A DNA stretch of 64,000 nt from Magnetococcales bacterium DC0425bin3 (GTDB lineage: Bacteria > Pseudomonadota > Magnetococcia > Magnetococcales > DC0425bin3): contig PEAP01000007.1 in assembly GCA_002753665.1 (NCBI GenBank), positions 529-64,528 of the forward strand, written 5' to 3'. Made by a program: the position numbers and the translations under genes. This document shows positions 6,146-52,168 of this stretch, one piece after another. Position 1 is the stretch's first letter. Every line of letters begins with the position of its first letter. The notes beneath the pieces were generated by a model. The model worked only from the letters and a program-made list of their open reading frames with translations. It made no database searches and was not told the origin of the DNA.

Positions 6146-7339
6146 GTGCCGTATGAAGCCTATGCGGGGTTTACCCGCCAGCGCCGATCCGGGGGTCGGC
6201 TGCGGACGTTGCGGTTGCTGAGTCCCGGACCGGGGGGTCGGGTCCGGACCGGGGACCGGGAGCTGATCAATTTTTCTTCCAACGATTATCTGGGATTGAC
6301 CCACCATCCGCTGTTGATCGAACGGGCCCGGGAATGGACCGAACGCTGGGGTGCCGGCTCCGGGGCTTCCCGGTTGATCTGCGGCAACCTGGAACCCTTC
6401 AAGACGGTGGAAGACAAGCTGGCCCGGGGCAAGGGCAGCGCGGTGGCCCTGGTGTTCAACTCCGGCTTTCAGGCCAATGCGGCCATTCTGGCCGCCCTGT
6501 TGGATCGGGAGGTTCTGGGCCGGGAACCGCTGGTCTTTTCCGACCGTCTCAACCACGCCAGCATTCACCATGGCTGCCGGGCCGCCGGTGTGCGGCAGAT
6601 CCGGTACCGTCACAATGACTTGAACCATCTGGAAAGCCTGCTGCAACGGCATCGGCAACGGCCCGGGCCGCGGTTCATCCTGTCCGAAACCGTGTTCAGC
6701 ATGGACGGAGACCGGGTGGACTTGGCGGGATTGCTGGACCTCAAGGAGCGCCATGGGGCGTTTCTCTACCTGGACGAGGCCCATGCCACCGGGGTGCTGG
6801 GCCCCAACGGTTTTGGCCTCAGCGCCGTCCATCCTGGTCGGGTGGATCTGGCCATGGGCACCTTCAGCAAGGGGCTGGGGGGGTTCGGAGCCTATGCCGC
6901 CTGTAGCCAGGAGATGGCGGAATACCTGGTCAACAACAGTGGCGGGTTCATCTATGCCACCGCCCTGCCCCCGGGGGTGCTGGGGGCCATGGATGCCGCC
7001 CTGGACCTGCTGCCTACCCTGGAAGCCGAACGTCGGCAACTGCTGGCGACAGCGGTTCGGGTACGGCACACCTTTCGGGAGGCGGGGCTGGATACCGGCG
7101 CTTCCGATACCCAGATCATCCCGGTGGTGGCCGGGGAGGAAAGCACTGTCCTGGCTCTTTCGGCCCGCCTGGAGCAGGAGGGGCTGCTGGCAGTGGCCAT
7201 TCGGCCGCCCACGGTTCCCGCCGGCGGTTGCCGGATTCGTTTCACCCTGGGGGCTGCCCATGGGACCGACGATCTGGACCGGCTGCTGGCCGCTGTTCCG
7301 GTCATGGCCCGTTTGATCGAGGGGGGGGGGGATAGATGA
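6146..7339 (+). CDS. bioF: 8-amino-7-oxononanoate synthase
   Basis: 397 aa class-II aminotransferase. NFSSNDYLGL, DEAH, and GTFSKGLG (PLP lysine). The C-terminus is encoded through an 11-G run (7321-7331). Confidence 0.9.
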   Translation: MPYEAYAGFTRQRRSGGRLRTLRLLSPGPGGRVRTGDRELINFSSNDYLGLTHHPLLIERAREWTERWGAGSGASRLICGNLEPFKTVEDKLARGKGSAVALVFNSGFQANAAILAALLDREVLGREPLVFSDRLNHASIHHGCRAAGVRQIRYRHNDLNHLESLLQRHRQRPGPRFILSETVFSMDGDRVDLAGLLDLKERHGAFLYLDEAHATGVLGPNGFGLSAVHPGRVDLAMGTFSKGLGGFGAYAACSQEMAEYLVNNSGGFIYATALPPGVLGAMDAALDLLPTLEAERRQLLATAVRVRHTFREAGLDTGASDTQIIPVVAGEESTVLALSARLEQEGLLAVAIRPPTVPAGGCRIRFTLGAAHGTDDLDRLLAAVPVMARLIEGGGDR

Positions 7340-36907: not shown

Positions 36908-37450
36908 GTGGAGATGGCGGTTCGAATTCGGGAGGCTATCTTGGTGAACGGGCAACGGTGGATGGGCCGGCGGGCCCTGGGGTGGTGGTTCATATTCCTG
37001 GCCATCGGGTTGGCGGGACCAGCGGTGGCTGCTCCTCTGCAGGATCCCATCCAGTTGCTGGAGGCGCTGGAGAAACAGCGTGTGGCCCTGGATGAGCGCG
37101 CCAGGAGTCTGGATCTCAAAGAGGCGGAACTGAAACGTCTTGAGGAGCGGATTGATAAGCGGATCGCCCTTCTGGAGGAGTTGCGCCTGGCCATTGAGAC
37201 CGATCTGGCCAAGGAGAAGGAGATCAACGACGAAAACATTCGCCGCTTGGCCAAGATCTATTCCGGCATGAAACCGCGTGCCGCCGCCGAACGGATTCGC
37301 GGTCTGGATCGCAAGACCGCCATCAAGGTCCTCAAGAACATCAACGAAAAGGTCGCGGCCCAGATCCTCGGCAAGATGGAAGCCCGGGATGCCGCAGCCC
37401 TGGCCGATATTCTGGGCATGACCCTGTCCGACAAACGCAACAATCGGTAA
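36908..37450 (+). CDS. MotE/FlbB-family flagellar protein (MgtE_N-like domain)
   Basis: N-terminal TM helix, a coiled coil, then IYSGMKPRAAAERI..LD...A..VL..INEKVAAQILGKMEARDAAALADIL. Confidence 0.6.
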   Translation: MEMAVRIREAILVNGQRWMGRRALGWWFIFLAIGLAGPAVAAPLQDPIQLLEALEKQRVALDERARSLDLKEAELKRLEERIDKRIALLEELRLAIETDLAKEKEINDENIRRLAKIYSGMKPRAAAERIRGLDRKTAIKVLKNINEKVAAQILGKMEARDAAALADILGMTLSDKRNNR

Positions 37451-37603
37451 TCGAAGATCTTTTCCCCCTTCCTGATGGTTCGTTTGCTGCTTCTGGCGAA
37501 AACCGCTCAAGCCTGGCCTTGCCCGGGCCGATAATCCTTCCCAAGTGGTCGTCCGGAGACGCCATCCCTGGCGTTTCCGGACTGATTCGCTCTGGCTGGG
37601 CTT

Positions 37604-37672
37604 GCCGTGAAAGCCGGGAAGCGGCTTTTATCGGTGAAGGGCGGCCTCCCTCATCCATCGAAATTGGATGGA
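37604..37672. repeat. REP-like element, full unit (R4)
   Basis: CCGTGAAAGCCG-GGAA-GCGGCTTTTATCGG hairpin followed by TGAAGGGCGGCCTCCCTCATCCATC. Confidence 0.75.
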
Positions 37673-37684
37673 ACAGAAAAAAGG

Positions 37685-37711
37685 TTCAAGAACGGTTTTG
37701 AGGTTCCGATA
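37685..37711 (+). promoter_or_regulatory. sigma28 (FliA)-type promoter candidate upstream of flagellin 1
   Basis: TCAA (37685-37688), 15 nt, then TCCGATAA (37704-37711), against the enterobacterial consensus TAAA-N15-GCCGATAA. Lies ~185 nt upstream of the ATG. Confidence 0.5.
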
Positions 37712-37797
37712 AGATAACCAGGCAGGCGAATGGATCGCCGGTTCGGCGGCAGGCAGGAAAGCCGCTGAAGACCTGAAAGCAGAACAGTCGGCAGTCA

Positions 37798-37850
37798 AAA
37801 GGGCTGGGTTGGCCCTTTAAAACGAACAGCCCACCTCCACCCAGGGACGG
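37798..37850 (+). promoter_or_regulatory. flagellin-associated conserved box, copy A
   Basis: AAAGGGC-TGGGTTG-GCCCTTT hairpin, then TAAAACGAACAGCCCACCTCCACCCAGGGACGG. CAGGGA at 37842-37847. Confidence 0.7.
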
Positions 37851-37894
37851 AAGACGCAAAATTCCATGAATTTTGCAGGTCGGAGGTTATAAAA

Positions 37895-38713
37895 ATGGCA
37901 CTTTACGTCAACACGAACGTTGCTTCATTGAATGCCCAGCGCAATTTAATGAAGTCAACCACTGCCCTGGGCGTGTCCTTCGCCCGGCTTGCCTCGGGGC
38001 TCCGCATCAACTCCGCCCGTGATGACGCGGCGGGACTGTCCATCACCAACCGCATGACCGCCCAGGTGCGGGGTCTGAATCAGGCCATCCGCAATGCCAA
38101 CGACGGCATCTCCCTGGCCCAGGTAGCCGAAGGCGCCCTGGACGAAACCTCCAACGCTCTGCAACGGATCAGGGAGCTGGCGGTACAGGCGGCCAACTCT
38201 ACCTACAACAGCGCGGACCGCGAGGACCTGAACAAAGAGGTCATCCAGCTGTTGTCGGAAATTCAACGGATCTCCGAACACACTGAATTCAACAAGATGG
38301 TCTTGCTCCATGGCAGCTACACCGGCCAGCAGTTCCAGGTGGGTGCCTTTTCCGGACAGACCATCACCATCAGTGTGGTCGGTGCCACCCGGTCGGCTCT
38401 GGGTGTTTCCATGGTGACCCTTTCCACCACTGACGGGGCCAACTCGGCCATGCGTTTGGTGGACAATGCCCTGGACAGCATTGCCGACATTCGAGCCAAT
38501 CTGGGGGCGATTCAGAGCCGTTTCGAGGCGGTGATCGGCAACCTCTCCAATATTGTGGAGAACATGTCCGCCGCCCGGTCCCGGATCCAGGACACCGATA
38601 TCGCTGCGGAGACTGCGCAATTGACCCGCACCGCCATATTGCAACAGGCGGGGACGGCGATTCTGGCCCAGGCCAACCAGCAACCGCAACTGGCGCTGCA
38701 ACTTCTCGGCTGA
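37895..38713 (+). CDS. fliC: flagellin 1 (272 aa, short type without a large variable domain)
   Basis: [18 protein letters not shown]...[18 protein letters not shown]...QSRF...[16 protein letters not shown]. Closest paralog is flagellin 7. Confidence 0.95.
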
Positions 38714-39437
38714 TTCGGTCGAAGGATGGCAGGCGGTTCCTGCCCGGCCCGAAGGGCGAGATGCGTCTGTCGGAGCAACGCCAGAGAAGGTCCCCGACCT
38801 GACGTGGGATGGAAGGTGGACGGTAACATTTTGTTCGAGAGAATTGTTTTAGCCTTTTGTTTTGTGAAAGGGCTGGAGAGTGTGGGAAAAGGTTCCCTCG
38901 GAGGCGCCGGCGGACATCCAACGGCGGCCAACCCGTGAATGGGACGGGGATCGACCCTTCAACCGGAAGGACGGATGGCAATGGAAAAGAACCACGGCAA
39001 GAAGCCGCCATTCAGGTCGCAGGCTTCCCAGCCACCCTGGGAACCGCGCCGGTTCATCCGCAACGGCCGGATGGGAGTGGCCCTGGTTCCGGTGGCCGTC
39101 CATGACGCGGAGGAAACAGCCCGCATCATTCGGCGCTTGAAAATGGTGGCTCCGTAGGATGTTTCGGATTACCGGCCAGCGTGGTCGGTTGATCCGGGAC
39201 CGATTGGAAATGCTGGGGAGACGCCCTGAGAGGCGTTGTCGGACGAGTTTCGAAGCAGGCCTTGCCCGTGACGGCGGCAAGTCTGGCGGGGGACGGTTCG
39301 GCCACTGGCCGACGCCCAGGATGGGCGCGTTCCCGCTGCCGACAGGGGAAGGGCTGGTGCTGGACGCCAGATCCCGAAACAGGCGGGGGCGTTCAGGGCA
39401 GGACGGCTGAGCCGGCAATGCCGGAACAGCAGTGGGG

Positions 39438-39485
39438 GGGGCCGCCCCAATACAACAGAATGGCTCAAATATAGACAGGGAAGTG
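39438..39485 (+). promoter_or_regulatory. degenerate flagellin box, copy B
   Basis: GGGGCCGCCCC, then a 27-nt A-rich segment, then CAGGGAAG (39476-39483). Spacing matches the other boxes but the ACGAAC core is lost. Confidence 0.35.
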
Positions 39486-39559
39486 AAACATCCGGGCCTT
39501 TGATGTTGATCCCAATGGGGATCGCCGATGGCTCGAATGCGCGGTGTGGAGGGACAGCA

Positions 39560-40381
39560 ATGGCTCTTTCGGTATTGACCAACGTCGCTTCTCTGAATGC
39601 TCAGAGGAATCTGGTGCGCTCCACCAATTCCCTGAACAAGACGTTTCAGCGGCTTTCTTCCGGAATGCGGATCAACCGTGCTGCGGATGATGCCGCCGGC
39701 CTTTCCATCACCAACCGGATGACCGCCCAGGTGCGGGGTCTGAACCAGGCGGTGCGCAATGCCAACGACGGCATTTCTTTGGTGCAGGTGGCGGAAGGCG
39801 CCCTGGATGAAACGACCAATGCCTTGCAGCGGATTCGCGAGTTGGCGGTTCAGGCGTCGAACGGCACCTACACCAGCACCGACCGCACCTCCCTGAACCA
39901 GGAGGTTCAGCAGTTGATCTCGGAGATCAACCGGATTGCGTCCCAGACCCAGTTCAACAACTCGAACCTGCTGACGGGCAGCTTTACCGCCAAACGGTTC
40001 CAGGTGGGGGCCTATTCCGGACAGATCATCATGATCTCCATCGGCAGCGCGGCGGCGGCCCACCTGGGAGTGAGCGGCCTGAGCCTGGGCGGCAGCGGCA
40101 TGAAGGCCATGTCCGCCATCAGCAAGGTGGATTTGGCCCTGAATAGCATTTCGGACATACGGTCCAAGATGGGAGCCATCCAGAGCCGGTTCGAATCGGT
40201 GATCTCCAACTTGAGCAACATCTCGGAGAACACCAGCGCGGCCCGGTCACGGATTCTGGATGCCGACATCGCGGCGGAAACCTCCAACCTGACTTCGAGT
40301 GCCATTTTGCAGCAGGCGGGAACCTCCATCCTGGCCCAGGCCAATCAGCAGCCCCAGATGGTGTTGCAGCTGCTGGGATGA
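39560..40381 (+). CDS. fliC: flagellin 2 (273 aa)
   Basis: [42 protein letters not shown]...[22 protein letters not shown] sits 7 nt upstream of the ATG. Confidence 0.95.
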
Positions 40382-40957
40382 CGGCAGGTGGAAGGTGGGG
40401 AAGGCTTGGGTGAGTGAAAAAGGGATGCGGTCGGAAGCTGTTTTGCGACCATCCCGGGTGGCCCGCAGGGGTCGCCAGCAGGCGCAGTCTGCAGAGCGAT
40501 GTGGACAGTGTCGTGTGGGAGTGATCGGTTGGGAAAGATCGAAGAGGGGAGACATGATCGTGGATGATATGACGATGGGGTGGTGAGAAAGTCCAGGCAA
40601 GGCAACGGGACGGGCGCGATCTCATGAGGGAAGAGACCCGGACCGGAACGGAATTCCATCCAGTGAAAGGCCGCGTTCTCCAGGGAACGGCACAGGGACG
40701 GTGCAGACGGCTGCAGGGAGGGAGGATCATGGAAGATCCAATGTCTGGAAGGGAATTGCGGTCCGGAAAGGGCACGGCGCACGGCCGGAGGATGCGGCGC
40801 ATGGCAGTCATGGATCGTCTGGACCATCGCAGGGATAGCGGTGGAAGCAGGGGTTCTTCTGGCGCGAAGTGCGACAGAAGCCGCGGCGCAGGGAGGCGTC
40901 GTCGTCTTCATCTTCAGGCGGTGCAGGCGATTGAAGACGGGCAGGGAGGAGCCTTGT

Positions 40958-41025
40958 CACCGTGGAAGCCGGGAAGCGGCTTTCATCGGTGGAGGATGGT
41001 GGGATGCTTCCCCCATCCATCAGGG
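40958..41025. repeat. REP-like element, full unit (R5)
   Basis: CCGTGGAAGCCG-GGAA-GCGGCTTTCATCGG followed by TGGAGGATGGTGGGATGCTTCCCCCATCCATC. Lies inside the flagellin 2/3 spacer. Confidence 0.75.
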
Positions 41026-41549
41026 GTAGCGCCTCCCGACCGGCAGAATGGTCAGGGAAGGGCCATTTCGCGACAGCCTCTCAGGGAAGATGCGTCGGAT
41101 TGTGTCGGCAGGCGACAGCAGGAAGCTGCCGTCCCGGAATGTTCCAGGATCCGTCAGGGAGGGCGACAGGAAACGGGAGGGCCTCAAGGGAAGAGGCACG
41201 GGGATTTTTCGCGGTCTGGAACAGCCATGAAAGGCCTCCATGGTTCATGGACCGCAAAGGATGCGGTCCATGAACCGGGGTCTTCAATCAGTGGGCAAGA
41301 CCGGCAGCTTCGGAGTGTCCCGAGCCTGTCGGTTCAATGGTGAATAGCTGTCGAAAGGGTTCTTCGACAGTGCGAGGCGGACCAGGAAGGGCCGCCGGTA
41401 ATGAGCGAATCTGGCAACCGGTGCGGCGTATCGACCGCACCGGGGCCGTCCAGACACACCATGGAGGGAGTCATTGGACGGTCTTTCAGGGACGATGATC
41501 CGGAGCAGGAGAATGGGTAACGCATAAAGAGTCGAGGGGAATTGATGAC

Positions 41550-41600
41550 GGGCTGGGGTTGGCCCTTTAAAACGAACAACCCATCTGCACCCAGGGAAGG
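41550..41600 (+). promoter_or_regulatory. flagellin-associated conserved box, copy C
   Basis: GGGC-TGGGGTTG-GCCC hairpin, then TTTAAAACGAACAACCCATCTGCACCCAGGGAAGG. CAGGGA at 41592-41597. Confidence 0.7.
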
Positions 41601-41656
41601 GGCAAGGAGCAATTCTGGAATTCATAGAAGAATTCCGCATTCAGGAGGAATGAATC

Positions 41657-42478
41657 ATGGGTCTTTATCTGAACACCAATATCGCGTCCTTGACTGCTCA
41701 ACGGCACCTGGACCGGTCCAATGCCGCCCTGAACAAGACGTTCGAGCGTTTGTCTTCGGGCTTGCGCATCAACCGGGCCGCGGATGACGCCGCCGGACTC
41801 AATATCACCAGCCGGATGACCTCCGAAATCCGGGGTACCAATCAGGCGGTGCGCAATGCCAACGATGCCATCTCCCTGGTGCAGGTGGCGGAAGGGGCCC
41901 TCAACGAGACCACCAACGCCCTGCAGCGGATGCGGGAACTGGCGGTCCAGGCCTCCAACGGCACCCTGACCAGCACTGATCGCAGCGACCTGAACGATGA
42001 GTTCCAGCAACTGCTGTCGGAAATCGACCGCATCGCGGAAAACACCAAGTTCAACGGCCAGACGCTGCTGATGGGCAGCTTCACCGCCAAGCGGCTCCAG
42101 ATCGGGGCCAACAGCGGCCAGAACCTGGTGATCTCCCTGGGGGTGGCCAAGGCCACTTCCTTGGGTGTGACCGGCGTCAGCCTGGGTGGCAATGGCACCC
42201 TGGCGATGTCTGCCATCACCCAGCTCACCACCGCCATCAACAGCGTTTCCGACCTGCGGTCCAAGCTGGGTTCTCTGCAGAACCGGTTCGACGCGGTGGT
42301 GTCCAACCTGGAGAACATCTCGGAGAACACCTCCGCCGCCCGCTCCCGGATCCTGGATGCCGACATCGCGGCGGAAACCTCCAACCTGACCAAGAACGCC
42401 ATCCTTCAGCAGGCCGGAACGGCGATTTTGGCCCAGGCCAACCAACAACCCCAACTGATCCTGAGCCTGCTCGGCTGA
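41657..42478 (+). CDS. fliC: flagellin 3 (273 aa)
   Basis: [36 protein letters not shown]...[16 protein letters not shown]. Confidence 0.95.
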
Positions 42479-42489
42479 GGAAAGGGGCG

Positions 42490-42526
42490 GTCCCCGTCCG
42501 GGAGACAGAGTCTTCCGGACGGGGAC
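42490..42526 (+). terminator. long GC-rich hairpin just after the flagellin 3 stop
   Basis: GTCCCCGTCCGG (42490-42501) pairs perfectly with CCGGACGGGGAC (42515-42526). The inner GAGAC/GTCTT extends the stem. No U-tract. Confidence 0.5.
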
Positions 42527-42571
42527 GATCCCGGAGGACGAGTCTGGGGCGGTTTCCTCCATGGTGCGTTT

Positions 42572-42600
42572 CTGGTTCCGGGCCATCGGCCCGGAACCAG
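42572..42600 (+). terminator. second perfect 13-bp hairpin in the flagellin 3 downstream region
   Basis: CTGGTTCCGGGCC-ATC-GGCCCGGAACCAG. Confidence 0.45.
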
Positions 42601-42783
42601 CCTGGGAGAATGCATTATGATTCAAACAGCAACTGTTTTGAAAAAACGGATTTTTTTGTCATTCATCGGGGGAGGCGGGCCGGTCGCAAGGTCGGCAGGG
42701 ATTCCCCGGAATCCGGCGCCACCGGGATTGAAGGGACAGGAGGTGCAAAAGGGAAGAGACACGGCAACAAGGAGCAGTCACAA

Positions 42784-42835
42784 GGGTTAGGGTTGGCCCT
42801 GTAAAACGAACAACCCACCTCCAACCATGGATGGG
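42784..42835 (+). promoter_or_regulatory. flagellin-associated conserved box, copy D
   Basis: GGGTTAGGGTTGGCCCTGTAAAACGAACAACCCACCTCCAACCATGGATGG. CATGGA stands in place of CAGGGA at 42826-42831. Confidence 0.7.
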
Positions 42836-42859
42836 ACCATCTTTGCGAGGAGGAAGAAA

Positions 42860-43684
42860 ATGGCGCTATCGATCAACACCAACATGGGATCGTTGATCAT
42901 TCAACGACACTTGAAGACCAGCACCAAGAGCCTGAACACCACGTTCGAGCGGTTGGCGTCTGGACTTCGGGTCAACTCTTCCGCGGATGACGCAGCGGGG
43001 TTGTCCCTGGCTTCGACCATGACGTCACAGATTCGGGGTTCCAACCAGGCGTCCCGCAATGCCAATGATGCGATTTCTCTGCTTCAGGTGGCGGACGCGG
43101 CCCTGGGAGAAACCGCCAACGCCCTGCAGAGGATGCGGGAGCTGGCGGTCCAGGCCTCCAACGGTACGTTGACCAGTACCGACCGGGGTGACTTGGACGA
43201 GGAATTCCAGCAGTTGATGTCGGAAATTGACCGCATCGCGGAGAACACCACCTTCAACGGTCGTGTTCTGTTGATGGGCAGCTTCACCGCGAAACGGATT
43301 CAGGTGGGGGCGATGAGTGGTCAGAACCTCGTCTTCTCGTTGAAGACGGCCAAGACCATCTCCATCGGCCTTGCGGTCAATATCAGTCTGGGGGGCAACG
43401 GCGTCATTGCGATGTCCGCCATTTCCCAGATCGAGGACGCCATCGGCAGCATTTCTGATCTGCGGGCCAAGGTTGGGTCCCTGCAGAGCCGGTTCGAAGC
43501 GGTGGTGTCCACTCTCGCCAGTTCGGTCGGGAGCCTGGAAGCGGCACGGGCCCGCATTCTGGATGCGGATATCGCGCAGGAGACAGCGAATCTCACCCGC
43601 GCGAGCATCCTGCAGCAGGCCGGAACGGCAGTATTGGCCCAGGCCAATCAGCAGCCGCAACTGGTTCTCGCCTTGCTCGGTTGA
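42860..43684 (+). CDS. fliC: flagellin 4 (274 aa)
   Basis: [36 protein letters not shown]...[26 protein letters not shown] precedes the ATG. Confidence 0.95.
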   Translation: MALSINTNMGSLIIQRHLKTSTKSLNTTFERLASGLRVNSSADDAAGLSLASTMTSQIRGSNQASRNANDAISLLQVADAALGETANALQRMRELAVQASNGTLTSTDRGDLDEEFQQLMSEIDRIAENTTFNGRVLLMGSFTAKRIQVGAMSGQNLVFSLKTAKTISIGLAVNISLGGNGVIAMSAISQIEDAIGSISDLRAKVGSLQSRFEAVVSTLASSVGSLEAARARILDADIAQETANLTRASILQQAGTAVLAQANQQPQLVLALLG

Positions 43685-43743
43685 CCCCTTCGGGGGTGGC
43701 GAACAGGGGAGGGGACCGTCCCGGAAACGGGCGGTTCCCTCAC

Positions 43744-43807
43744 GGGACCGGGCCGGTCCCGGAAAACGAACGGCCCACCTCACCAGGGACGGTGAGCGGT
43801 GTTTTTT
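43744..43807 (+). terminator. orphan box-like element (copy E) ending in a canonical intrinsic terminator
   Basis: GGGACCG-GGC-CGGTCCC hairpin, GGAAAACGAACGGCCCAC, then CTCACC-AGGGAC-GGTGAG hairpin (43779-43796) and a T6 run (43802-43807). Confidence 0.6.
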
Positions 43808-44149
43808 CGATAGCGCCTGACGTCCATTCCGGTCCCCGCCTGCAGTGTGGGGGGGCCGGAATGGGTTCCTTTCCGAGACCGGAAGCTCCGGTGCCGGATG
43901 GGGGAAGCACTTGGACGATGTCTGCCGGCCAGGGACAGGCCGGAGAGCCTGCCGTGAGAGTCGCAGTGGCGGTTCCCATGGCACGAAGGGGGAGAGGTCT
44001 CCCCCCCGGGAGAATGGTCGTGAAGGACAAGGATCGAAGGGGCACGACAAGGGTTTGCACGACAGGGGTTTGGAAAAGGGTTGCCTCTGACCAGGGATGG
44101 ATGGAACGGGGGATGGCGCCCCCGGGTTTGGCGGGTGGGAGGTGATTCA

Positions 44150-44968
44150 ATGGCTTTTTCCGTTGAGACCCATGTGGCGGCCCTGTTCGCCCAGCGGCAG
44201 ATGGGACGATCATCCTCTTCCCTGGGGCATTCGTTCCGTCGCCTGGCGACGGGATTGCGGATGGAGGATTTTCCGGAAGATGGGGAGGAGGTCTCCATCG
44301 AGACCGGCTCCGAGGTGCGGACCCGGGTGCTGAATCAGGCCATTCGCAGCGCCAACGACGGGATTTCCCTGGCCCAGGTGGCCGAGAGGGCGCTGGAGCG
44401 GACCATGGGAGTCCTGGGGCGGATCCAACAATTGTTGAAACCGGATCCGGACAGCCCGCCTGTGGAACAGGAAGAGATGGCGCGGGAAATCAGTCGCCTG
44501 GTCCTGGAGGTGGACCGGATCGCCCAGGGGACCGTGTTCGACGGCATGAGCCTATTGACCGGAAGCGTCCAGGGGCAGGGGTATCAGGTAGGTGTCGGCA
44601 GCAGTCAGACTTTGACCATCACCATTGAACCGGCCGGAGCCGAAGCCATAGGCCTGGGCAGGCTGGAGGAAGGACTGGAGAAGGAAGGATCCGAGGGGGT
44701 TCCGGAAGTGGTGGTGAACGAGGCCATGGCCAGTGTTTCGGGCATCCGGGCCACCCTGGAGGAGGTGCTGGACCGGTTCGAGGCGGCGGCGGGCAATTTG
44801 AACACCCTGTCCGAGAACATGGAGGCGTCCCGCAGCCGGATCATCGATGTGGATGTGGCCGAGGAAACATCGGCCATGGCCCGGGATGCCATTTTGCTGC
44901 AGGCGGATCGGGCGGTGCTGGCCCAGGCCAATCACCATCCGCAACTGGTTTTGACCCTGCTGGATTGA
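44150..44968 (+). CDS. divergent flagellin-like protein 5 (272 aa)
   Basis: Flagellin N- and C-terminal helices are recognisable ([19 protein letters not shown]..., SRSRIIDVDVAEETSAMARDAILLQ...QANHHPQLVLTLLD). The RINSAxDDAAG segment is replaced by RMEDFPEDGEEVSIETGSE. Confidence 0.8.
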   Translation: MAFSVETHVAALFAQRQMGRSSSSLGHSFRRLATGLRMEDFPEDGEEVSIETGSEVRTRVLNQAIRSANDGISLAQVAERALERTMGVLGRIQQLLKPDPDSPPVEQEEMAREISRLVLEVDRIAQGTVFDGMSLLTGSVQGQGYQVGVGSSQTLTITIEPAGAEAIGLGRLEEGLEKEGSEGVPEVVVNEAMASVSGIRATLEEVLDRFEAAAGNLNTLSENMEASRSRIIDVDVAEETSAMARDAILLQADRAVLAQANHHPQLVLTLLD

Positions 44969-45228
44969 TTTGGTTATTGCGGCGGCTTGGGAAGCGACCG
45001 CCAGGCCTGTCCCGCGAGGGGCAGGGAAGCCGGTACCGGCATTGGGGCCGGTACAACATGGGCCTGAATCCGCGCAGAAAGCGGAAAAATGGCCGGTGTC
45101 GGATGCCGAGGATGGAGCGTCGTTGAACGGTGGCGCGTTTCCGGTGAATGGAAGGACGCTCCATCCGGTATCGGACAGAAGGTACAAGGGAGGCGGACAG
45201 GAACGAAGGACAGGCAAACGGAACTGAC

Positions 45229-45280
45229 GGGTTAGGGTTGGCCCTGTAAAACGAACAACTCACCTCCAACCAGGGAAGGA
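45229..45280 (+). promoter_or_regulatory. flagellin-associated conserved box, copy F
   Basis: GGGTTAGGGTTGGCCCTGTAAAACGAACAACTCACCTCCAACCAGGGAAGG. CAGGGA at 45271-45276. Confidence 0.7.
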
Positions 45281-45309
45281 TACAGACCAATGTGTCGGGA
45301 GGAAATACC

Positions 45310-46131
45310 ATGGCTTTGTCGATCAATACCAACATCGCTGCGTTGACGATTCAAAACCGGCTGCGGACCAGCACTGACAGCTTGAACCGGACCTTCGAGA
45401 GACTGTCGTCCGGTCTGCGGGTGAATTCCGCCAAGGACGATGCCGCGGGACTGGGTATCGCCACCAGTCTCAGCGCCCAGATTCGGGGCAACAATCAGGC
45501 GGCGCGCAACGCCAACGATGCCATTTCGTTGGTGCAGGTGGCGGAGGGGGCACTCGGGGAAACGGCCAATGCCCTGCAACGGATGCGGGAGCTGGCGGTT
45601 CAAGCTTCCAACGGCACCCTGACCAGCACCGACCGCAGCGACTTGAACGACGAGTTCCAGCAGCTCTTGTCGGAAATCGACCGCATCGCGGAAAACACCA
45701 AGTTCAATGGCCAGACGCTGCTGATGGGCAGCTTCACCGCCAAGCGGCTCCAGATCGGGGCCAACAGCGGTCAGAACCTGGTGATTTCCCTGGGGGTGGC
45801 CAAGGGCACCTCCCTGGGGGTGAACGGCGTCAGCCTGGGGGGCAATGGCACCATGGCGATGTCCGCCATCACCCAGCTCACCACCGCAATCAACAGCGTC
45901 TCGGATTTGCGCTCCAAGATGGGCGCGCTCCAGAACCGCTTCGAGGCGGTGGTGACCAACCTGTCCACTGCGGCCGAGAACCTGGAAGCGGCCCGGGCCC
46001 GGATCATGGATGCCGATATCGCCCAGGAGACATCCAGCCTGACCCGGAACGCCATCCTGCAGCAGGCGGGAACCGCGGTGCTGGCCCAGGCCAATCAGCA
46101 ACCGCAGCTGGTGTTGGCTTTGCTGGGATGA
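45310..46131 (+). CDS. fliC: flagellin 6 (273 aa)
   Basis: [36 protein letters not shown]...[16 protein letters not shown]. Confidence 0.95.
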
Positions 46132-46162
46132 TCACGCCACGGTCATTCCGGTGACAGGGGAT

Positions 46163-46184
46163 CGCCCCGGGAGGCCCCGGGGCG
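46163..46184 (+). terminator. 9-bp GC hairpin after flagellin 6
   Basis: CGCCCCGGG-AGGC-CCCGGGGCG, 32 nt after the stop codon. No U-tract. Confidence 0.4.
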
Positions 46185-46206
46185 GTTGTCCCAAGCCACT
46201 TCTGGT

Positions 46207-46260
46207 CGGGTTCGGGCCGGACCCGTCGCAACGAACGGCCCAGTGTCGCCAGGGATTGGC
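46207..46260 (+). promoter_or_regulatory. orphan degenerate flagellin box (copy H), no flagellin downstream
   Basis: CGGGTTCGGGCCGGACCCG hairpin, then TCGCAACGAACGGCCCAGTGTCGCCAGGGATTGG. CAGGGA at 46250-46255. Confidence 0.4.
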
Positions 46261-46307
46261 GTCGAACCGCCCCCGCTTGTCGGGGGCGTTTCCTTTTCTG
46301 GAAGTTC

Positions 46308-46445
46308 GACGGAAGGGGGAGGACTCCCTCTGCCATCTATCGATGGAAGCCCCTTTCCGGCTTCCACGGTAACTTTGCTGGATGGGGGAGGCCCTCCCTC
46401 CACCCTTCACCGATGAAAGCCGTTTCCCGGCCTCCAGGGTAGATC
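46308..46445. repeat. REP-like composite, two tandem units in reverse orientation (R6)
   Basis: Two copies of GG.GGGGGAGG.C.CCCTC...C + CGATG(G/A)AAGCC..TTCC(C)GGC.TCCA.GG, joined by the same TAACTTTGCTGGA junction seen in R3. Confidence 0.75.
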
Positions 46446-46468
46446 ACGCCGTTTCGGCCGGGCAGGAA

Positions 46469-47317
46469 TTACCCGGTCGAATTTTCCTCCGGCAGATGCA
46501 ACAAATCCTTGGCGGGGCTTTTCAGTCCCGCGGCGCGAATCTTTTCCAACATCCGGGGATGGAGGCCGGGTCCCGCCGCCACCACGTCCCCGGATTCAAG
46601 GAATCCGTTACCCCCGTTGAAATCGCTGACGAAGCCTCCCGCCTCTCGGACCAGCAGAATCCCGGCGGCGATATCCCAGACGCACAGATTCATTTCCCAG
46701 AAACCGTCGAATCGCCCGGCGGCGGTGTAGGCCAGGTCCAACGCCGCGCTGCCTGCCCGGCGCACGCCCGGTCCCGAAGACAGCAGCAGGGGGCCGAAGC
46801 TTTTCAGATAAGCCTGACGCAAACCCCGTTCCCGAACCGGAAAGCCGGTGGCCAGGAAGGCATCGGCCAGGTGGGGAATGTTGGTGACCCGGATGCGGTG
46901 GCCGTTGAAAAAGGCGCCGGCCCCTTTCTCTGCCGTGAACAGTTCATCCTGGACGGGATTGTAGACCAGCCCGGCCAGTACCTGGTCGTCTTCCGCCAGG
47001 GCGATGGAAATGGCGAAGTGGGGCAACCCTCGCAGGAAGTTGGTGGTGCCGTCGATGGGGTCGATGATCCAGTGATGTCCCGTGGGCCGTCGGGCGGGGT
47101 CGGCGCTCTCTTCCGCCAGGACTCCGTATTGGGGATAGCCCTTGCGCAGGTGATAGAGGATTTCCCGTTCCACCCGGGTGTCGGCCTCGGAGACGAAGTC
47201 GTGGGCCGCCTTTTCCCGTACCTGGAGCTGTTCCCGGCGGTCGAAGTAACGCAAGGCCAAGGCTCCGGCCTTGCGGGCGGCCCGGACGGCAAGATTCATG
47301 ACGGGGGAATGAAGCAT
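46469..47317 (-). CDS. suhB: inositol monophosphatase family protein (SuhB-like)
   Basis: MLHSPVMNLAVRAARKAG.., EESA, WIIDPIDGTTNF, and WDIAAG motifs. Confidence 0.88.
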   Translation of the reverse strand: MLHSPVMNLAVRAARKAGALALRYFDRREQLQVREKAAHDFVSEADTRVEREILYHLRKGYPQYGVLAEESADPARRPTGHHWIIDPIDGTTNFLRGLPHFAISIALAEDDQVLAGLVYNPVQDELFTAEKGAGAFFNGHRIRVTNIPHLADAFLATGFPVRERGLRQAYLKSFGPLLLSSGPGVRRAGSAALDLAYTAAGRFDGFWEMNLCVWDIAAGILLVREAGGFVSDFNGGNGFLESGDVVAAGPGLHPRMLEKIRAAGLKSPAKDLLHLPEENSTG

Positions 47318-47505
47318 GGGGTGGCTGCGACCGGGGCAATGGAGAAAGGGGGGGAGCTGACGACAAAAAACTAACATGGGCTGGGGGGGAACGTCACCGG
47401 CACCGGGAATAATTGTGTCCATGGCCGAACCAGGTGGGGGAAAAGTTTGCCCATCCGGGAACAGTAATTATGTTCAACTGTTTGATATAACACAAATAAA
47501 TGTTA

Positions 47506-47521
47506 TGGCACAAATAATGCT
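47506..47521 (+). promoter_or_regulatory. sigma54 (-24/-12) promoter candidate for flgK-flgL-fliW
   Basis: TGGCAC-AAATA-ATGCT matches TGGCAC-N5-TTGCW with correct GG-N10-GC spacing. It sits in the only AT-rich island of the region, ~145 nt upstream of the flgK ATG. Confidence 0.6.
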
Positions 47522-47665
47522 GACCATGAAACAGGCCGTAACTTCGCGGGTCTCTTCCGAAAAATCGGTGGGAGGCAAAACGGACTTACGGATGGCATGA
47601 GAAGTGCATATCGGCTCTGCGGCAGGAAGCATCATCGGGCCCATCGCGTTCAGAAAGACAGGCAA

Positions 47666-49435
47666 ATGTCGATTACCAACCTTCTGTACAGTTCCAAGCT
47701 GGGGCTGTTTGCCAATCAGTCGGCGCTGAACGCGGTGTCCCACAACATCGCCAACGTCAACACCCCCGGCTATTCCCGGCAGACGGTCTCCCTGGAGGCC
47801 AATCCCGGCGCGGCAGCCATCCCGGGTCGCAGCGGCGAAGGGGTGCTGGTGGCGGATCTGAAGCGCCAGGTGGATGCGCTGGTGGACAAGCGGTTGCGGC
47901 TGGGGATGGAGGAATCCGGACGGTTGGAATCACGGGATCGTTTCCTGGGCCTGATGGAGGATGTGTTCAACGATCTGGACGGCGAGGGCTTTTCCTCGCG
48001 GATGGAGTCCTTTTTTCAGTCGGTGGATGCGGCGGCGGACAATCCGATCAACCCGGTGGCCCGGGCCCAGGTGGTGGCCAGCGCCGAGGACCTTTCCCTG
48101 TTCGCGACCAAGATGCAGACCTCCCTGGAGGAACTGGCGCTGCCGGTGGACCAGGAAGTGACCAACATGCTCGACCAGATCAACAGCACCCTGGGCAACC
48201 TGGAGGAGATCAACGGCCAGATCGTCGCGGCGCTCGCCGCCGGCGGCCAGCCGCTGGATCTCCAGGATCAGCGGCAGCAGTTGGTCCAGAACCTGAGCCG
48301 GATGCTGGACGTGCAGGTTCTCGATGGCGGCAACGGCGGCATCAGTGTTCTCTCCGGGTCCGGACAACTGCTGCTGGATCAGTCCTTTCGGGCGGTTTTT
48401 TCCCGCAGCGAGGGCACTACCACGGCTGCCGGTTTTCAGGGCATCGCCATCAATGGCGAGGCGTTCGACTACACCGACCTGGTCCATGGTGGTTCTCTGA
48501 AGGGGCTGCTGGAAATCCGGGATCAGACGATCCACGGGGAGAACGGTTATCTCACCCGTCTGGAATCCTTGGTGGACGAGATCCGCTTCCAGACCAACCT
48601 GGCCCATGTCACGGCGGTGCCCCAGAACATGCTCCAAGAGCTGACCGGGGTGATGAATCTGGGCAACGATTTGACCACGGTCATGGGATCCCTGGTGACC
48701 GATCCGACCAGCAGTGACTACCTGGATTCTCCCACGGACCTGGGACGGACCGAGATCCAGGCCGGCACCATCACCTTTGCCCGGGGCAGCGATTCGGACA
48801 ATTTGACCACCGTGACCGTGACGGTGGATCCCGCCACTCAGAGCCTCACCGACCTGGTGACCGCCATTGGGACGGCCACCGGCATGAGCGCCGAGATCAC
48901 TGCCAACAATCGGTTGCGGGTCTATACCACCGACGGCACGGAAGTGTTCGGAGTGGTTTCCGATACCAGCAACGTACTGGCGGCCCTGGGGGTGGGCGCG
49001 CTGTTTGGCGGCAACGGCGCCCGGGACATGACGGTCAACCAGGACCTGCTGGCCGATACCAACCGGCTGGGCATCTCCCGGGTGGACGTCTCCAGTGGAA
49101 CGCCGGTGTTTGACGATGCCTCCAATGCCGGCATCCTGGCCCTGGGGGCATTGCGTTCCACCAAGTTCACCATCGGCGGCAACATGCTGACCTTCAGCTC
49201 CCACTACGCCGACATCGCCGGCGACCTGGGGGTGGCCCGGGCGCAGAACGAGGAATCCATGGCGGCCCAGGAATCGTCCGCGGCCTTTCTTCAGGATGTC
49301 CGGGATTCCATCTCGGGGGTTTCCCTGGAGGAGGAGCTGACCGACCTGGTGAAGTTTCAACGGGCCTTCCAGGCCTCCAGCCGGATGGTTTCGGTGGCCG
49401 ACGAGCTGCTGGAAACGATCATCGGCATGATCTAG
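47666..49435 (+). CDS. flgK: flagellar hook-associated protein 1
   Basis: MSITNLLYSSKLGLFANQSALNAVSHNIANVNTPGYSRQ N-terminus. C-terminus EELTDLVKFQRAFQASSRMVSVADELLETII. Confidence 0.92.
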   Translation: MSITNLLYSSKLGLFANQSALNAVSHNIANVNTPGYSRQTVSLEANPGAAAIPGRSGEGVLVADLKRQVDALVDKRLRLGMEESGRLESRDRFLGLMEDVFNDLDGEGFSSRMESFFQSVDAAADNPINPVARAQVVASAEDLSLFATKMQTSLEELALPVDQEVTNMLDQINSTLGNLEEINGQIVAALAAGGQPLDLQDQRQQLVQNLSRMLDVQVLDGGNGGISVLSGSGQLLLDQSFRAVFSRSEGTTTAAGFQGIAINGEAFDYTDLVHGGSLKGLLEIRDQTIHGENGYLTRLESLVDEIRFQTNLAHVTAVPQNMLQELTGVMNLGNDLTTVMGSLVTDPTSSDYLDSPTDLGRTEIQAGTITFARGSDSDNLTTVTVTVDPATQSLTDLVTAIGTATGMSAEITANNRLRVYTTDGTEVFGVVSDTSNVLAALGVGALFGGNGARDMTVNQDLLADTNRLGISRVDVSSGTPVFDDASNAGILALGALRSTKFTIGGNMLTFSSHYADIAGDLGVARAQNEESMAAQESSAAFLQDVRDSISGVSLEEELTDLVKFQRAFQASSRMVSVADELLETIIGMI

Positions 49436-49453
49436 GCCTACAGGGGATCACCC

Positions 49454-50668
49454 ATGCGCGTTACGCAATCCATGATGTACCGGGCCACCGCCACCTCCCT
49501 GCAGGCGCAGTACCAGGAGGTGGCCAAGGTCCAGGAGCAGTCCAACAGCGGGCAGAGGGTCAATACCCTCTCCGAGGACCCGGCGGCGGCCTACCGGAAC
49601 ATGCTGCTCTCTTCGGAACTCTCCAGCGTGGAGAGCCTGAAGCGGACCACCGACATCGCGGTGGAACGGTTCATCATGGCCGAGGACAGCATCCAGGTGA
49701 TGCATGACAAGTTCCTGGATGCCCAGGATCTGATCCTGAAGATGGGCACCAGCCTGCAGCAGGGACTGCCCGAGGTGATGAAAGCGGCCTCCCGGGAGGT
49801 GTTGGCCCAGTACGAGGACGTGATGCGGTATGCCAATGCGGAACTGGATGGCGTTCCCATATTCAGCGGCGGCAAGACTCGCAATCCTTTCAATGGAAAA
49901 GATTTTTTGGCCACGAGCGTCCGGATGCGCTCCGGAGATGAAGGCGGATTTCTGGCCACGACGGAGGGAGATTACACCGCGGCGGTGACCGGCGTTCCCG
50001 ACCAGGTTCCCCTGGGGGTCAAGATCACCTATCGCACCACCGATTCCGACGGCACGGCCCTGGCCACCGCCCAGTACGAGGTGAACGTCAACGGCGACAG
50101 CACCACGGTGGATGCCACCGGCACCCCCCAAACCATTACCGTGGCCACGGGGGTGGAGTTCACCGTCAATGCCTCTGCCACGCCTGGCGACGGGGATGCC
50201 TTCTACTTCGAGGTGGTGCCGTCCTACCAGGGCGGAGAGGCGGACCGGCTGGTGAAGGTTTCCGACACCCGCAATCTGGCCGGCAATGTCACCGGCGCGG
50301 AGTTGATCGAGGGGAAAAATCCTCCCGGACGAGGCGTCAACTTGCTGGCAGCGCTGGCCGGGCTGCGGGGGGCGCTGATGCGGTCGGACAGCGAGGAGGT
50401 CAATGCTTGGCTGGGAACGGTTCAAGAGGGACGGGCCCAGGCATCGGACTTGCAGGCGATCACCGGCATCCGGGCGGTTCAGGCTGAATCGATCCGCAGC
50501 ACGTTGGAGGATGATCAACTGACTTTGGAAAACACCAAGGCCAAAAACATCGAGGCGGATGTGTTTGATGTCCTGAGCCGTTTGGAGCAGGCGACACAGG
50601 CCTTGCAGGTCATGACAGTCAGTGAGCGGCAGGTACTCAACACCTCCCTGCTCGATTTCATTCGGTAG
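49454..50668 (+). CDS. flgL: flagellar hook-associated protein 3
   Basis: MRVTQSMMY.....LQ......AKVQEQ.SSGQRVN.LSEDPAAA. Flagellin-like termini. Follows flgK. Confidence 0.88.
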   Translation: MRVTQSMMYRATATSLQAQYQEVAKVQEQSNSGQRVNTLSEDPAAAYRNMLLSSELSSVESLKRTTDIAVERFIMAEDSIQVMHDKFLDAQDLILKMGTSLQQGLPEVMKAASREVLAQYEDVMRYANAELDGVPIFSGGKTRNPFNGKDFLATSVRMRSGDEGGFLATTEGDYTAAVTGVPDQVPLGVKITYRTTDSDGTALATAQYEVNVNGDSTTVDATGTPQTITVATGVEFTVNASATPGDGDAFYFEVVPSYQGGEADRLVKVSDTRNLAGNVTGAELIEGKNPPGRGVNLLAALAGLRGALMRSDSEEVNAWLGTVQEGRAQASDLQAITGIRAVQAESIRSTLEDDQLTLENTKAKNIEADVFDVLSRLEQATQALQVMTVSERQVLNTSLLDFIR

Positions 50669-50694
50669 GGTCAAGGCAGGACGGAGAACAGGTT

Positions 50695-51189
50695 ATGGAA
50701 CTTCAGGGAACGCGCTTTGGAACGTTGGAATTCGATGGCGAGGAGATCATCACCTTGAACGAGGGGTTGCTGGGGTTTCCGCTTTCCAAGCGGTTTCTCC
50801 TGTTTCCCTACGGGGATGATTCCTCCTTCTTTTGGCTGCAATCGGTGGACGAGCCGGAGATCGCCTTCATCGTGGTCAACCCGTTCGATTTCTTCTCGGA
50901 CCTGGAATTCGCCGTGCAGGACACGGATGCCGACGCCATCGGCCTGGTTCGGGGGGAGGATGTGGAGATCTTCAGTCTGGTGACCATCCCCGAGGGGCGT
51001 CCCGAGGAGATGCGCACCAACCTGGCCGGCCCGGTGGTGGTCAACGTGGCCAACCGCCAGGGCAAGCAGATCCTGATCAAGGACTACTCGCCCCGCCAGG
51101 CGCTGATCCCCGAGGAAATTCGGCAGAATTTTCGGCAGCAGCTGGGCAGCCAGCAGCCGACCAGGAAGCGGGCGGTGGGTGGCGGTTGA
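50695..51189 (+). CDS. fliW: flagellar assembly factor FliW
   Basis: MELQGTRFGTLEFDGEEIITLNEGLLGFP..KRFLLFP.......FFWLQSVDEPEIAFIVVNPF..F.DLEF is the typical FliW fold sequence. Carries a ~20-aa basic C-terminal tail. Confidence 0.88.
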   Translation: MELQGTRFGTLEFDGEEIITLNEGLLGFPLSKRFLLFPYGDDSSFFWLQSVDEPEIAFIVVNPFDFFSDLEFAVQDTDADAIGLVRGEDVEIFSLVTIPEGRPEEMRTNLAGPVVVNVANRQGKQILIKDYSPRQALIPEEIRQNFRQQLGSQQPTRKRAVGGG

Positions 51190-51245
51190 GCAGGGGGGGA
51201 ACGGCCCGGGACGGGTCGGATCTCCATGAGGCCGCCACGGCGGTC

Positions 51246-51300
51246 GAAGGGCTGGGGTTGGCCCTTTCAAGCGAGCAACCCACGCCGATCAGGGATGACA
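51246..51300 (+). promoter_or_regulatory. flagellin-associated conserved box, copy G (contains a sigma28-like -10)
   Basis: AAGGGC-TGGGGTTG-GCCCTT hairpin, then TCAAGCGAGCAACCCACGCCGATCAGGGATGA. GCCGATCA at 51284-51291. CAGGGAUG (51290-51297) matches the CsrA SELEX core CARGGAUG. Confidence 0.7.
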
Positions 51301-51349
51301 ACGGACCGATAGCACGACAGTGCCGTCATGATAGAAAGAGGATGAAATC

Positions 51350-52168
51350 ATGCCGCTTTACATCAATACCAACGTCGCTTCATTGAATGCGCAACGCAAT
51401 TTGATGAAGTCCACCAACTCGCTGGGCCGCACTTTTGCCCGCTTGGCTTCCGGCATGCGCATCAATTCCGCCCGGGACGATGCGGCGGGACTGGCCATTA
51501 CCCAGCGCATGACCGCCCAGGTGCGGGGCCTGAATCAGGCCATCCGCAATGCCAACGATGGCATCTCTCTGGCCCAGGTGGCCGAAGGCGCCCTGGACGA
51601 AACCTCCAACGCCCTGCAACGGATCCGGGAGCTGGCGGTGCAGTCGGCCAACTCCACCTACAACAGCGCGGACCGCGAGGACCTGAACAAGGAGGTCATC
51701 CAGCTCCTGTCGGAAATTCAGCGGATTTCCCAGCACACCGAGTTCAACAAGATGACCCTGCTCGGTGGCAGCTACCGGGGGCAGCAGTTCCAGGTGGGGG
51801 CCTTTTCCGGCCAGACCATCACCGTCAGCATCTTTGGCGCCTCCCGGGGGGCACTGGGGATTTCCACCATCACCCTGTCCACCACCGCCGGGGCCAACTC
51901 GGCCCTGCGCCTGGTGGACAATGCCCTGGACAGCATTGCCGATATCCGCGCCAACCTGGGTGCGATCCAGAGCCGTTTCGAGGCGGTGGTCGGCAACCTC
52001 TCCAATATTGTGGAGAACATGTCCGCCGCCCGGTCCCGGATCCAGGACACCGATGTCGCCGCCGAGACCGCCACCCTGACCCGCAACGCCATCTTGCAGC
52101 AGGCGGGCACCGCGGTACTGGCCCAGGCCAACCAGCAGCCGCAGTTGGCACTCCAGTTGCTTGGCTAG
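51350..52168 (+). CDS. fliC: flagellin 7 (272 aa), close paralog of flagellin 1
   Basis: [36 protein letters not shown]...[16 protein letters not shown]. Long DNA stretches are identical to flagellin 1. Confidence 0.95.
   Translation: MPLYINTNVASLNAQRNLMKSTNSLGRTFARLASGMRINSARDDAAGLAITQRMTAQVRGLNQAIRNANDGISLAQVAEGALDETSNALQRIRELAVQSANSTYNSADREDLNKEVIQLLSEIQRISQHTEFNKMTLLGGSYRGQQFQVGAFSGQTITVSIFGASRGALGISTITLSTTAGANSALRLVDNALDSIADIRANLGAIQSRFEAVVGNLSNIVENMSAARSRIQDTDVAAETATLTRNAILQQAGTAVLAQANQQPQLALQLLG

Follow-up and report, generated by a model that had tools for sequence, protein, structure and literature searches.

The closest described systems are the flagellin leaders under CsrA-FliW control, namely those of hag in Bacillus subtilis, flaA in Campylobacter jejuni and flaB in B. 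burgdorferi. These leaders are short (45 nt for flaA) and carry two simple stem-loops. In C. jejuni, CsrA represses flaA via two ANGGA stem-loops, FliW antagonises this repression and the flaA leader itself titrates CsrA (PMC4894983). The present work concerns a box of about 57 nt found beside flagellin genes in a stretch of 64,000 nucleotides (the window) of contig PEAP01000007.1 from Magnetococcales bacterium DC0425bin3. The Magnetococcales build unusual sheathed flagellar bundles from 7-15 flagellin paralogues. Our analysis identified the box as a conserved, strand-specific structured RNA family with a hairpin of CsrA consensus and, in silico, pairing between an anti-Shine-Dalgarno (anti-SD) sequence and the Shine-Dalgarno (SD) sequence. 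It is probably a composite translational operator of Magnetococcales flagellin mRNAs that acts in cis, in leaders as well as in intercistronic regions, via CsrA-FliW. From 5' to 3', its predicted modules are (i) an H-type pseudoknot, (ii) an anti-SD, ACCUCC, and (iii) a short ANGGAN hairpin (hairpin 2) that would be the CsrA site.

A covariance model (R1) built from 39 box copies gave seven strong matches in the window, all on the + strand and all beside flagellin genes, which number seven (A to G) and also lie on the + strand. Five of these matches had been placed correctly by the first-pass annotation and score 48-76 bits: box A (37798-37854, 71.6 bits), box C (41548-41604, 66.6 bits), box D (42782-42838, 76.1 bits), box F (45227-45283, 76.5 bits) and box G (51247-51302, 48.3 bits). 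They precede the flagellins starting at 37895, 41657, 42860, 45310 and 51350, respectively. Furthermore, TAAAACGAAC allowing at most one mismatch was found 6 times compared to 0.7 expected, and none of 100 shuffles reached 6. The annotation counted these five copies but missed two orphan boxes as well as traces upstream of the two remaining flagellins. Orphan box X1 lies 3' of flagellin D (43742-43796, +, 53.7 bits; the feature extends to 43806 with its U-run) and orphan box X2 lies 3' of flagellin F, at the end of the flagellin array (46206-46262, +, 33.7 bits; feature to 46298). With filters off and a search space of 128 kb, a large score gap follows the seven strong matches, and the next two are a degenerate copy 5' of flagellin B (start 39560) and a remnant 5' of flagellin E (start 44150). 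The former (39430-39488, +) is the eighth-best match in the window (12.5 bits, E 0.06), while the latter (44084-44100, +) is a partial match to model positions 37-53, located 58 nt upstream of its gene and retaining hairpin 2 alone (CC-AGGGAU-GG). The distance between the box end and the ATG is about 24-56 nt rather than the 34-65 nt given initially, and the start codon of flagellin D is the one at 42860 rather than the in-frame ATG further upstream, at 42827. The box is the sole non-coding direct-repeat family of the array: its copies share 80-100% identity over 55 nt and their flanks do not align, whereas the flagellin coding repeats are less conserved (60-77% identical).

The initial description of the 5' part of the box as a short GC hairpin was incomplete since it missed a pseudoknot that joins the hairpin loop to RRCCC after TAAAACGAAC. 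The hairpin is stem 1 of this H-type pseudoknot, and its loop GGGUU pairs, as stem 2, with RRCCC located after an A-rich linker. In the consensus, stem 1 is GGGYU/GRCCC, stem 2 associates GGGUU(G) with (C)RRCCC, and loop 3 (...AAAAYGAAC) crosses stem 1. In box A, stem 1 is formed by GGGC(U) (37801-37805) and (G)GCCC (37811-37815), stem 2 by GGGUU (37806-37810) and AGCCC (37828-37832), and the A-rich loop 3 occupies 37816-37827. The geometry (4-6 bp for stem 1, 5-6 bp for stem 2, 1-2 nt, 0 nt and 8-17 nt for loops 1, 2 and 3) fits the H-type class.

In a MAFFT alignment of 40 distinct copies, 99% of the 200 cells of stem 2 are paired, and double-sided changes are found in all five pairs (33 cells). 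None of 500 shuffles reached the observed pairing, double-change count or covariation score, and sliding the partner by one column decreases the pairing to 58-59%. RNAalifold, unprompted, picks the same helix and adds a sixth pair, G-C. Stem 2 occurs in 18 distinct loop/partner combinations, including GGGUU/AACCC, GGGCC/GGCCC (X1 and X2), GGACC/GGUCC, GAGUC/GGCUC, GAGUU/AACUC, GGAUC/GGUUC, AGGCU/AGCCU and GAACC/GGUUC. Stem 1 was counted by script, since its 15-nt and 16-nt hairpins are not in one register with MAFFT or the model. Its core pairs are 91-100% paired and of GC, UG, CG, UA and AU types, a value reached by none of 2000 shuffles; the inner pairs are UG, CG, UA or GC, and one copy carries GUGAUC/GGUCAC. 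Even the degenerate copy of flagellin B has a stem 1 (GGGG/CCCC) and a stem 2 (GGGCC/GGCUC). Judged by their covariation, both stems are real, and the interlocking of two covarying helices makes the structure an H-type pseudoknot. Because many of the pairs are G-U, only the flagellin sense strand can fold in this way. Alternatively, the two helices could be mutually exclusive states, although neither strand has another conserved partner. An extended hairpin, GGGU/ACCU, which appears in some minimum free energy (MFE) folds, is not conserved and was dropped. Upstream, conservation stops at a sharp 5' edge (A or C at -1, A at -2), largely explained by an extension of stem 1, and no position is conserved from -60 to -3 relative to the box.

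Compensatory changes in two interlocked helices, with G-U pairs that are valid on one strand, would be unexpected for a protein-binding DNA site. They make it very improbable that the box is a DNA element, i.e. a transcription-factor site or, as in one reading of the first-pass annotation, a flagellar promoter (sigma-28 or sigma-54) located behind a hairpin that terminates the preceding gene. The box does resemble sigma-28 class III flagellin promoters by its location upstream of flagellins, its TGGCCC recalls a sigma-54 -24 element, and sigma-28 and sigma-54 scans identified no other promoter for C, D or F. However, the sigma-28 (TCAAG-N14-GCCGATAA) and sigma-54 (TGGCAC-N5-TTGCW) motifs of this organism are recognisable, canonical and located elsewhere, some of them 5' of boxes, and the local sigma-28 promoters lie upstream of the boxes at variable distances. 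Where a sigma-28 -10 element would be expected, boxes A, C, D and F have CUCCANCC, and no -10 element was found in A, C, D, F, X1 or X2. The sigma-28 reading was therefore rejected for A, C, D and F and may hold for copy G alone. In box G, whose pseudoknot is intact, the linker and the anti-SD are replaced by UCAAG ... GCCGAUCA, generating the sigma-28-like hexamers TCAAG-N12-GCCGATCA (51266-51292, +). Both deviations of this copy from the box consensus shift it toward promoter hexamers, but its N12 spacer is 2 nt shorter than the local N14. Box G may be a working promoter inside a decaying box. The sigma-54 reading was also rejected: the box reads TGGCCC-TGTAA-AACG, with AACG where the GC of the -12 element belongs, and canonical sites are found elsewhere, TGGCACAAATAATGCT (47506-47521, +) preceding flgK and TGGCACTCCAGTTGCT (52146-52161, +) within the 3' end of flagellin G and 5' of flaG-fliD-fliS. 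Stem 1 is not an intrinsic terminator since the next bases are UKUAAAAC, without any U-run. As for a promoter role, X1 and X2 have no gene to drive.

The best match to the sigma-28 consensus in the 64 kb, and the only one with at most one mismatch, is TCAAG-N14-TCCGATAA (37686-37712, +; one mismatch), located 86 nt upstream of box A, which would place this box inside a 5' untranslated region. More generally, the sigma-28 motif is found 54-270 nt 5' of boxes in the window and in the related loci L004, L007, L008, L010, L016 and L105. In the latter (strain THC-1), boxes start 9-24 nt past the previous stop codon and are thus intercistronic. These upstream promoters and intercistronic positions argue strongly that the box is transcribed as RNA.

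Besides flagellin leaders, the preQ1-I and SAM-II aptamers and the Escherichia coli rpsO (S15) operator also have a hairpin loop that pairs downstream and an A-rich third loop, and adjoin the ribosome-binding determinants of the gene that they regulate. In contrast to these, the SD of the box leaders is outside the pseudoknot, the context is flagellin rather than metabolic or ribosomal, and cmscan against Rfam found no sequence or model similarity. Indeed, a search of the window against Rfam 15 (including preQ1, SAM-II, c-di-GMP, Csr/Rsm and flagellar motifs) at gathering thresholds gave no match to the box, nor did any family match a box in the region 37600-46400 when E values as high as 10 were allowed. 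Literature searches did not yield any description of this leader either. This pseudoknot is a motif that was not previously described and, as it covaries well, it could be submitted as a new RNA family.

The likeness to small H-type aptamers (stem-loop, A-rich tail and tail-to-loop pairing) raises the question of whether the pseudoknot is a sensor that gates the neighbouring anti-SD, CsrA being a second and separable input. Such a sensor would be either an aptamer of riboswitch type or an operator bound by a dedicated protein, and it would respond to a flagellar protein or to a ligand, for example a second messenger of motility. The conservation of the unpaired loop 3 exceeds the need of a spacer (one invariant A; GA of ...AAYGAAC at least 90%), the anti-SD, which resembles an expression platform, begins 1 nt after stem 2, and the pseudoknot is kept in copies lacking CCUCC as well as in X1 and X2. 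However, A-minor contacts alone can explain conserved A-rich loops, covariation supports no mutually exclusive fold (GGGU/ACCU not being conserved), and the element, without Rfam relative even at relaxed E, occurs solely in one order and beside flagellin genes, no metabolic gene being linked to it. A sensor therefore appears rather unlikely to us.

The features that lead us to favour a CsrA-FliW operator lie downstream of the pseudoknot. About 12 nt after stem 2, hairpin 2 reads, in 46 distinct copies, C (43), C (45), A (45), N, G (46), G (46), A (46), N, G (43), G (42); both N positions take all four bases, and the motif CCANGGANGG is otherwise near-invariant. Hairpin 2 is an ANGGAN hexaloop closed by C-G pairs and matches the CsrA/RsmE consensus (A/U)CANGGANG(U/A), a hexaloop known as a high-affinity motif for these proteins. 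In the window, it is CC-AGGGAC-GG in box A (37841-37850), CCC-AGGGAA-GGG in box C and CC-AUGGAU-GG in box D, and the degenerate copy of flagellin B still carries AC-AGGGAA-GU. In diverged copies, the stem is longer, e.g. CUCACC/GGUGAG, CGCCC/GGGCG, GGUCC/GGAUC, GGAACCC/GGGUUUC or CUCC/GGAG. Furthermore, CANGGANG is found 34-84 nt upstream of the ATG of all seven flagellins of the window, including B (at 39476) and E (at 44092). Leaders (65 nt, from stem 2 to the start codon) contain 4.05 GGA compared to 1.55 +/- 0.17 in shuffles (2.6-fold), and 2.27 ANGGA compared to 0.48. In every leader, the SD (GGAGG, GGAG or AGGA) provides a second GGA. The consensus of hairpin 2, the GGA enrichment and the presence of fliW in the window all support in silico a second reading of the first-pass annotation, namely a CsrA site accompanied by a second GGA at the SD.

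Its third reading, in which CCUCC occludes the GGAGG of the same leader, also gained in silico support from folding and from the co-occurrence of the two sequences. In the main subtype, ACCUCC is found one nt after stem 2 and, in MFE folds, pairs with the leader's own GGAGG(U), thereby enclosing hairpin 2 and a variable hairpin 3. The helix is longer in some genomes (CCUCCAGC/GCUGGAGG; CCUCCAGC/GUUGGAGG in MC-1). Leaders that carry CCUCC always have a full GGAGG SD, whose predicted paired probability is mostly 0.5-1.0, whereas leaders devoid of CCUCC mostly have GGAG, GAGG or AGGA, with a probability of 0.2-0.4. In leader A, the CCUCC (37834-37838) faces the SD GGAGG (37882-37886; + strand feature 37882-37897, including the start codon), its predicted partner and a candidate second CsrA site, and the probability that this SD is paired is 1.00; it is 0.97 in leader D. 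The anti-SD is mutated to UCUGC in box C, and the degenerate copy of flagellin B is devoid of CCUCC.

By analogy with Bacillus and Campylobacter, CsrA would bind hairpin 2 and the second GGA (SD or hairpin 3) and would hold flagellin translation low, the anti-SD helix adding a structural lock on the SD. Flagellin export would then free FliW, which would sequester CsrA and thereby raise translation. The pseudoknot, which abuts the anti-SD helix, would probably stack on and stabilise this closed state, or protect or mark the 5' side of each cistron; it may instead bind a further partner. The element would thus work like the known CsrA-controlled flagellin leaders. Similarly to hag, flaA and flaB, it is located in the 5' leader of major late flagellar genes, carries ANGGA in a hairpin loop and a second GGA overlapping the SD, and has fliW in a neighbourhood of flagellin, flgKL and fliDS genes; CsrA is also recorded for the lineage (PMC4682653). 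As for flaA, the box leaders could titrate CsrA. What sets it apart are the upstream H-type pseudoknot with its conserved A-rich loop and the dedicated CCUCC anti-SD, both absent from the hag, flaA and flaB leaders, the multiplication of the box over 7-15 paralogues, including intercistronic positions, and its gene-less copies at terminators; CsrA binding, for its part, is a prediction here.

Several observations weigh against this CsrA-FliW operator. Many copies are paralogues, so the covariation counts do not represent independent events, and the fold of leader A as a whole has a modest z-score (-1.86). In the main subtype, the stem of hairpin 2 is short or variable beyond the two closing C-G pairs. 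A single SD would be contested by CsrA and by the anti-SD helix. Box G holds the sigma-28-like hexamers described above, and the box is missing from most fliW-adjacent flagellins of other genomes. Finally, csrA was detected neither in the window nor in the related loci (358 kb), whether by a regex or by phmmer with E. coli and B. subtilis CsrA as queries. The presence of csrA in this metagenome-assembled genome (MAG) is inferred from fliW and from Magnetococcus marinus MC-1, for which both CsrA and FliW are recorded (PMC4682653, S3 table). If the proposed operator is correct, the CsrA-FliW circuit would extend to a deep proteobacterial lineage, and a leader common to almost all paralogues would give a concrete and testable post-transcriptional mechanism for the coordination of Magnetococcales flagellins. 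With a pseudoknot, an anti-SD and a CsrA hairpin in about 57 nt, the box would also offer a compact model for the interplay of RNA structure and CsrA at a ribosome-binding site.

The + strand of the array contains just two sites resembling intrinsic terminators, and both are attached to a box. The first (43779-43806) includes hairpin 2 of X1: downstream of stems 1 and 2, which have compensatory sequences (GGGCC/GGCCC), CUCACC-AGGGAC-GGUGAG (43779-43796) is followed by a U-run, so that the CsrA-type hairpin is itself the terminator-like stem. The second (46268-46298) is a separate intrinsic terminator (46268-46288 followed by UUUCCUUUUC) located directly after X2; an inositol monophosphatase gene lies 3' of X2 in convergent orientation. 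We infer that A-D and E-F are two transcription units, both of which end in a box. These terminal copies, together with the intercistronic copies of L105, the sharp 5' conservation boundary and the lack of detected promoters for C, D and F, would suit an element involved mainly in mRNA processing or stability. In such a scheme, tandem flagellins are co-transcribed, the pseudoknot marks or protects the 5' ends of processed cistrons and the 3' ends at X1 and X2, thereby setting the stoichiometry of the paralogues, and the GGA hairpin and CCUCC are secondary. We find this explanation quite unlikely: it leaves the near-invariant CANGGANG and the CCUCC/GGAGG co-occurrence unexplained, and the conservation at -1 and -2 is largely that of the stem 1 extension.

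Under the CsrA-FliW operator that we favour, X1 and X2, located at terminators without any gene, would place a CsrA site at the 3' ends of two putative transcripts and might act as decoys. They resemble the CsrB and RsmX/Y/Z sponges by their CANGGANG hairpin, terminator end and absence of ORF (open reading frame). Another likeness to these sponges is the 1.3-kb region between flagellins B and C (40382-41657, +), which contains 24 ANGGAN sites, whereas the window as a whole has about 5 per kb on average. Of these 24 sites, 11 lie in hairpin loops, e.g. GGAUC-AUGGAA-GAUCC and GCGGCGC-AGGGAG-GCGUCGU. The GGA-rich non-coding stretch itself, upstream of box C, spans 40382-41547 (+), and its single long ORF has no Pfam match; it could be a long CsrA-binding leader or a sponge. 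In contrast to CsrB and RsmX/Y/Z, no family match was found, and both X1 and X2 have just one GGA hairpin, accompanied by the pseudoknot. Sponge small RNAs are not known from FliW-type lineages (PMC4682653). It can be imagined that each flagellin cistron has a two-input operator (pseudoknot sensor and CsrA-FliW), with X1, X2 and the GGA-rich spacers as decoy RNAs. This combination, which we hold to be rather doubtful, would bring RNA decoys into a lineage for which dependence on FliW, and not on RNA sponges, is assumed. In L011 (around 6400-6640) and L018 (around 5160-5380), the region 3' of a flagellin gene also contains a series of four to five GGA hairpins in tandem. These hairpins (GCC-AGGGAA-GGC, GUGCACC-AGGAC-GGUGUGC, GCC-AGGAC-GGC, ...) are reminiscent of CsrB/Rsm-type sponges.

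The box was found in about 50 copies distributed over 16 Magnetococcales assemblies, and nowhere else. When 596 Gb of genomes were searched with an exact degenerate pattern of 23 nt, all 17 matches fell in Magnetococcales MAGs. In the 358 kb of Magnetococcales DNA, R1 gave 51 matches at E <= 0.0012, every one on the flagellin-coding strand and either inside a flagellin array or adjoining a gene with a sigma-28 promoter. Diverged copies precede flagellins in M. marinus MC-1, Magnetofaba australis, strain FCR-1, THC-1 and others. For the cultivable strains MC-1 and MO-1, boxes are located at 9902, 15072, 18599 and 19947 of locus L002. Among 79 metagenomic flagellin loci (305 kb; protein identity <=60%), the box was found in one, the closest relative, and in none of the other 78. 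As this protein scan mostly retrieved non-Magnetococcales flagellins (<=60% identity), it was used as a negative control. Among seven further relatives fetched by protein, five landed on a fliW-adjacent flagellin, usually without box.

The first-pass annotation saw no box upstream of a non-flagellin gene. This holds for the window but, among the relatives, the association is not strictly exclusive. Two MAGs have a box in front of genes that encode homologous small proteins of 102-129 aa and lie outside flagellar clusters (L007 3422-3811, -; L014 around 2280-2588, +), a sigma-28 promoter being located 54-75 nt 5' of the box. These proteins share an N-terminal QTN...QAIS and a C-terminal F.YPNGG, and their neighbours are non-flagellar (GGDEF-EAL, ZnuA, FKBP). 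The best-conserved boxes (78-79 bits), observed in six MAGs, precede an SD (GGGAGG) and an ORF of 40-52 codons that is poorly conserved and resembles a decayed flagellin N-terminus; a second box and a flagellin come next. These top-scoring boxes (L008 1686-1742; L009 7001-7057; L010 3849-3905 / L017 11-67; L016 7496-7552; L019 3498-3554) have a sigma-28 promoter about 190 nt upstream. The second box is found about 440 nt further in L008, L016 and L017, the three loci whose sequence reaches that far, and a flagellin follows it in L008 and L017. Since the box precedes both small protein genes and decayed ORFs, its occurrence defines a small late flagellar regulon, not flagellins alone. Pfam and NCBIfam scans of the 102-129 aa proteins and of the small ORFs beside flagellins detected no FlbT, FlaF, FlgM or other family.

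Flagellin G sits within a flgK-flgL-fliW-flagellin-flaG-fliD-fliS cluster, apart from the tandem array. A tandem array accompanied by a single fliW-linked flagellin is the layout described for Magnetococcus MC-1 and MO-1 (PMC7175107). The fliW gene (50695-51189, +; Pfam PF02623, E 2.6e-34), which encodes the CsrA protein antagonist, is immediately 5' of box G, this box thus being located between fliW and flagellin G. Several Magnetococcales (L020, L022, L103, L104 and L005) carry two fliW paralogues, one after flgL and the other just 5' of the cluster flagellin; a flagellin gene that is large or fragmented separates the two. ORFs within the long intergenic regions gave no family match and were treated as non-coding. 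A repeat of 45-66 nt (CCGTGRAAGCCGGGAAGCGGCTTTYATCGGTGRAGG...), resembling repetitive extragenic palindromes (REP) or miniature inverted-repeat transposable elements (MITE), has four copies within and flanking the flagellin array (37605-37644, +; 40956-41021, +; 46308-46373, -; 46395-46440, -), two of which are inverted. Finally, a 168-aa protein encoded between fliJ and flagellin A (36944-37450, +) weakly matches both MgtE_N/FliG_M and FlbB, the periplasmic flagellar collar protein of spirochaetes (NCBIfam, E 9e-11, under the curated cut-off).

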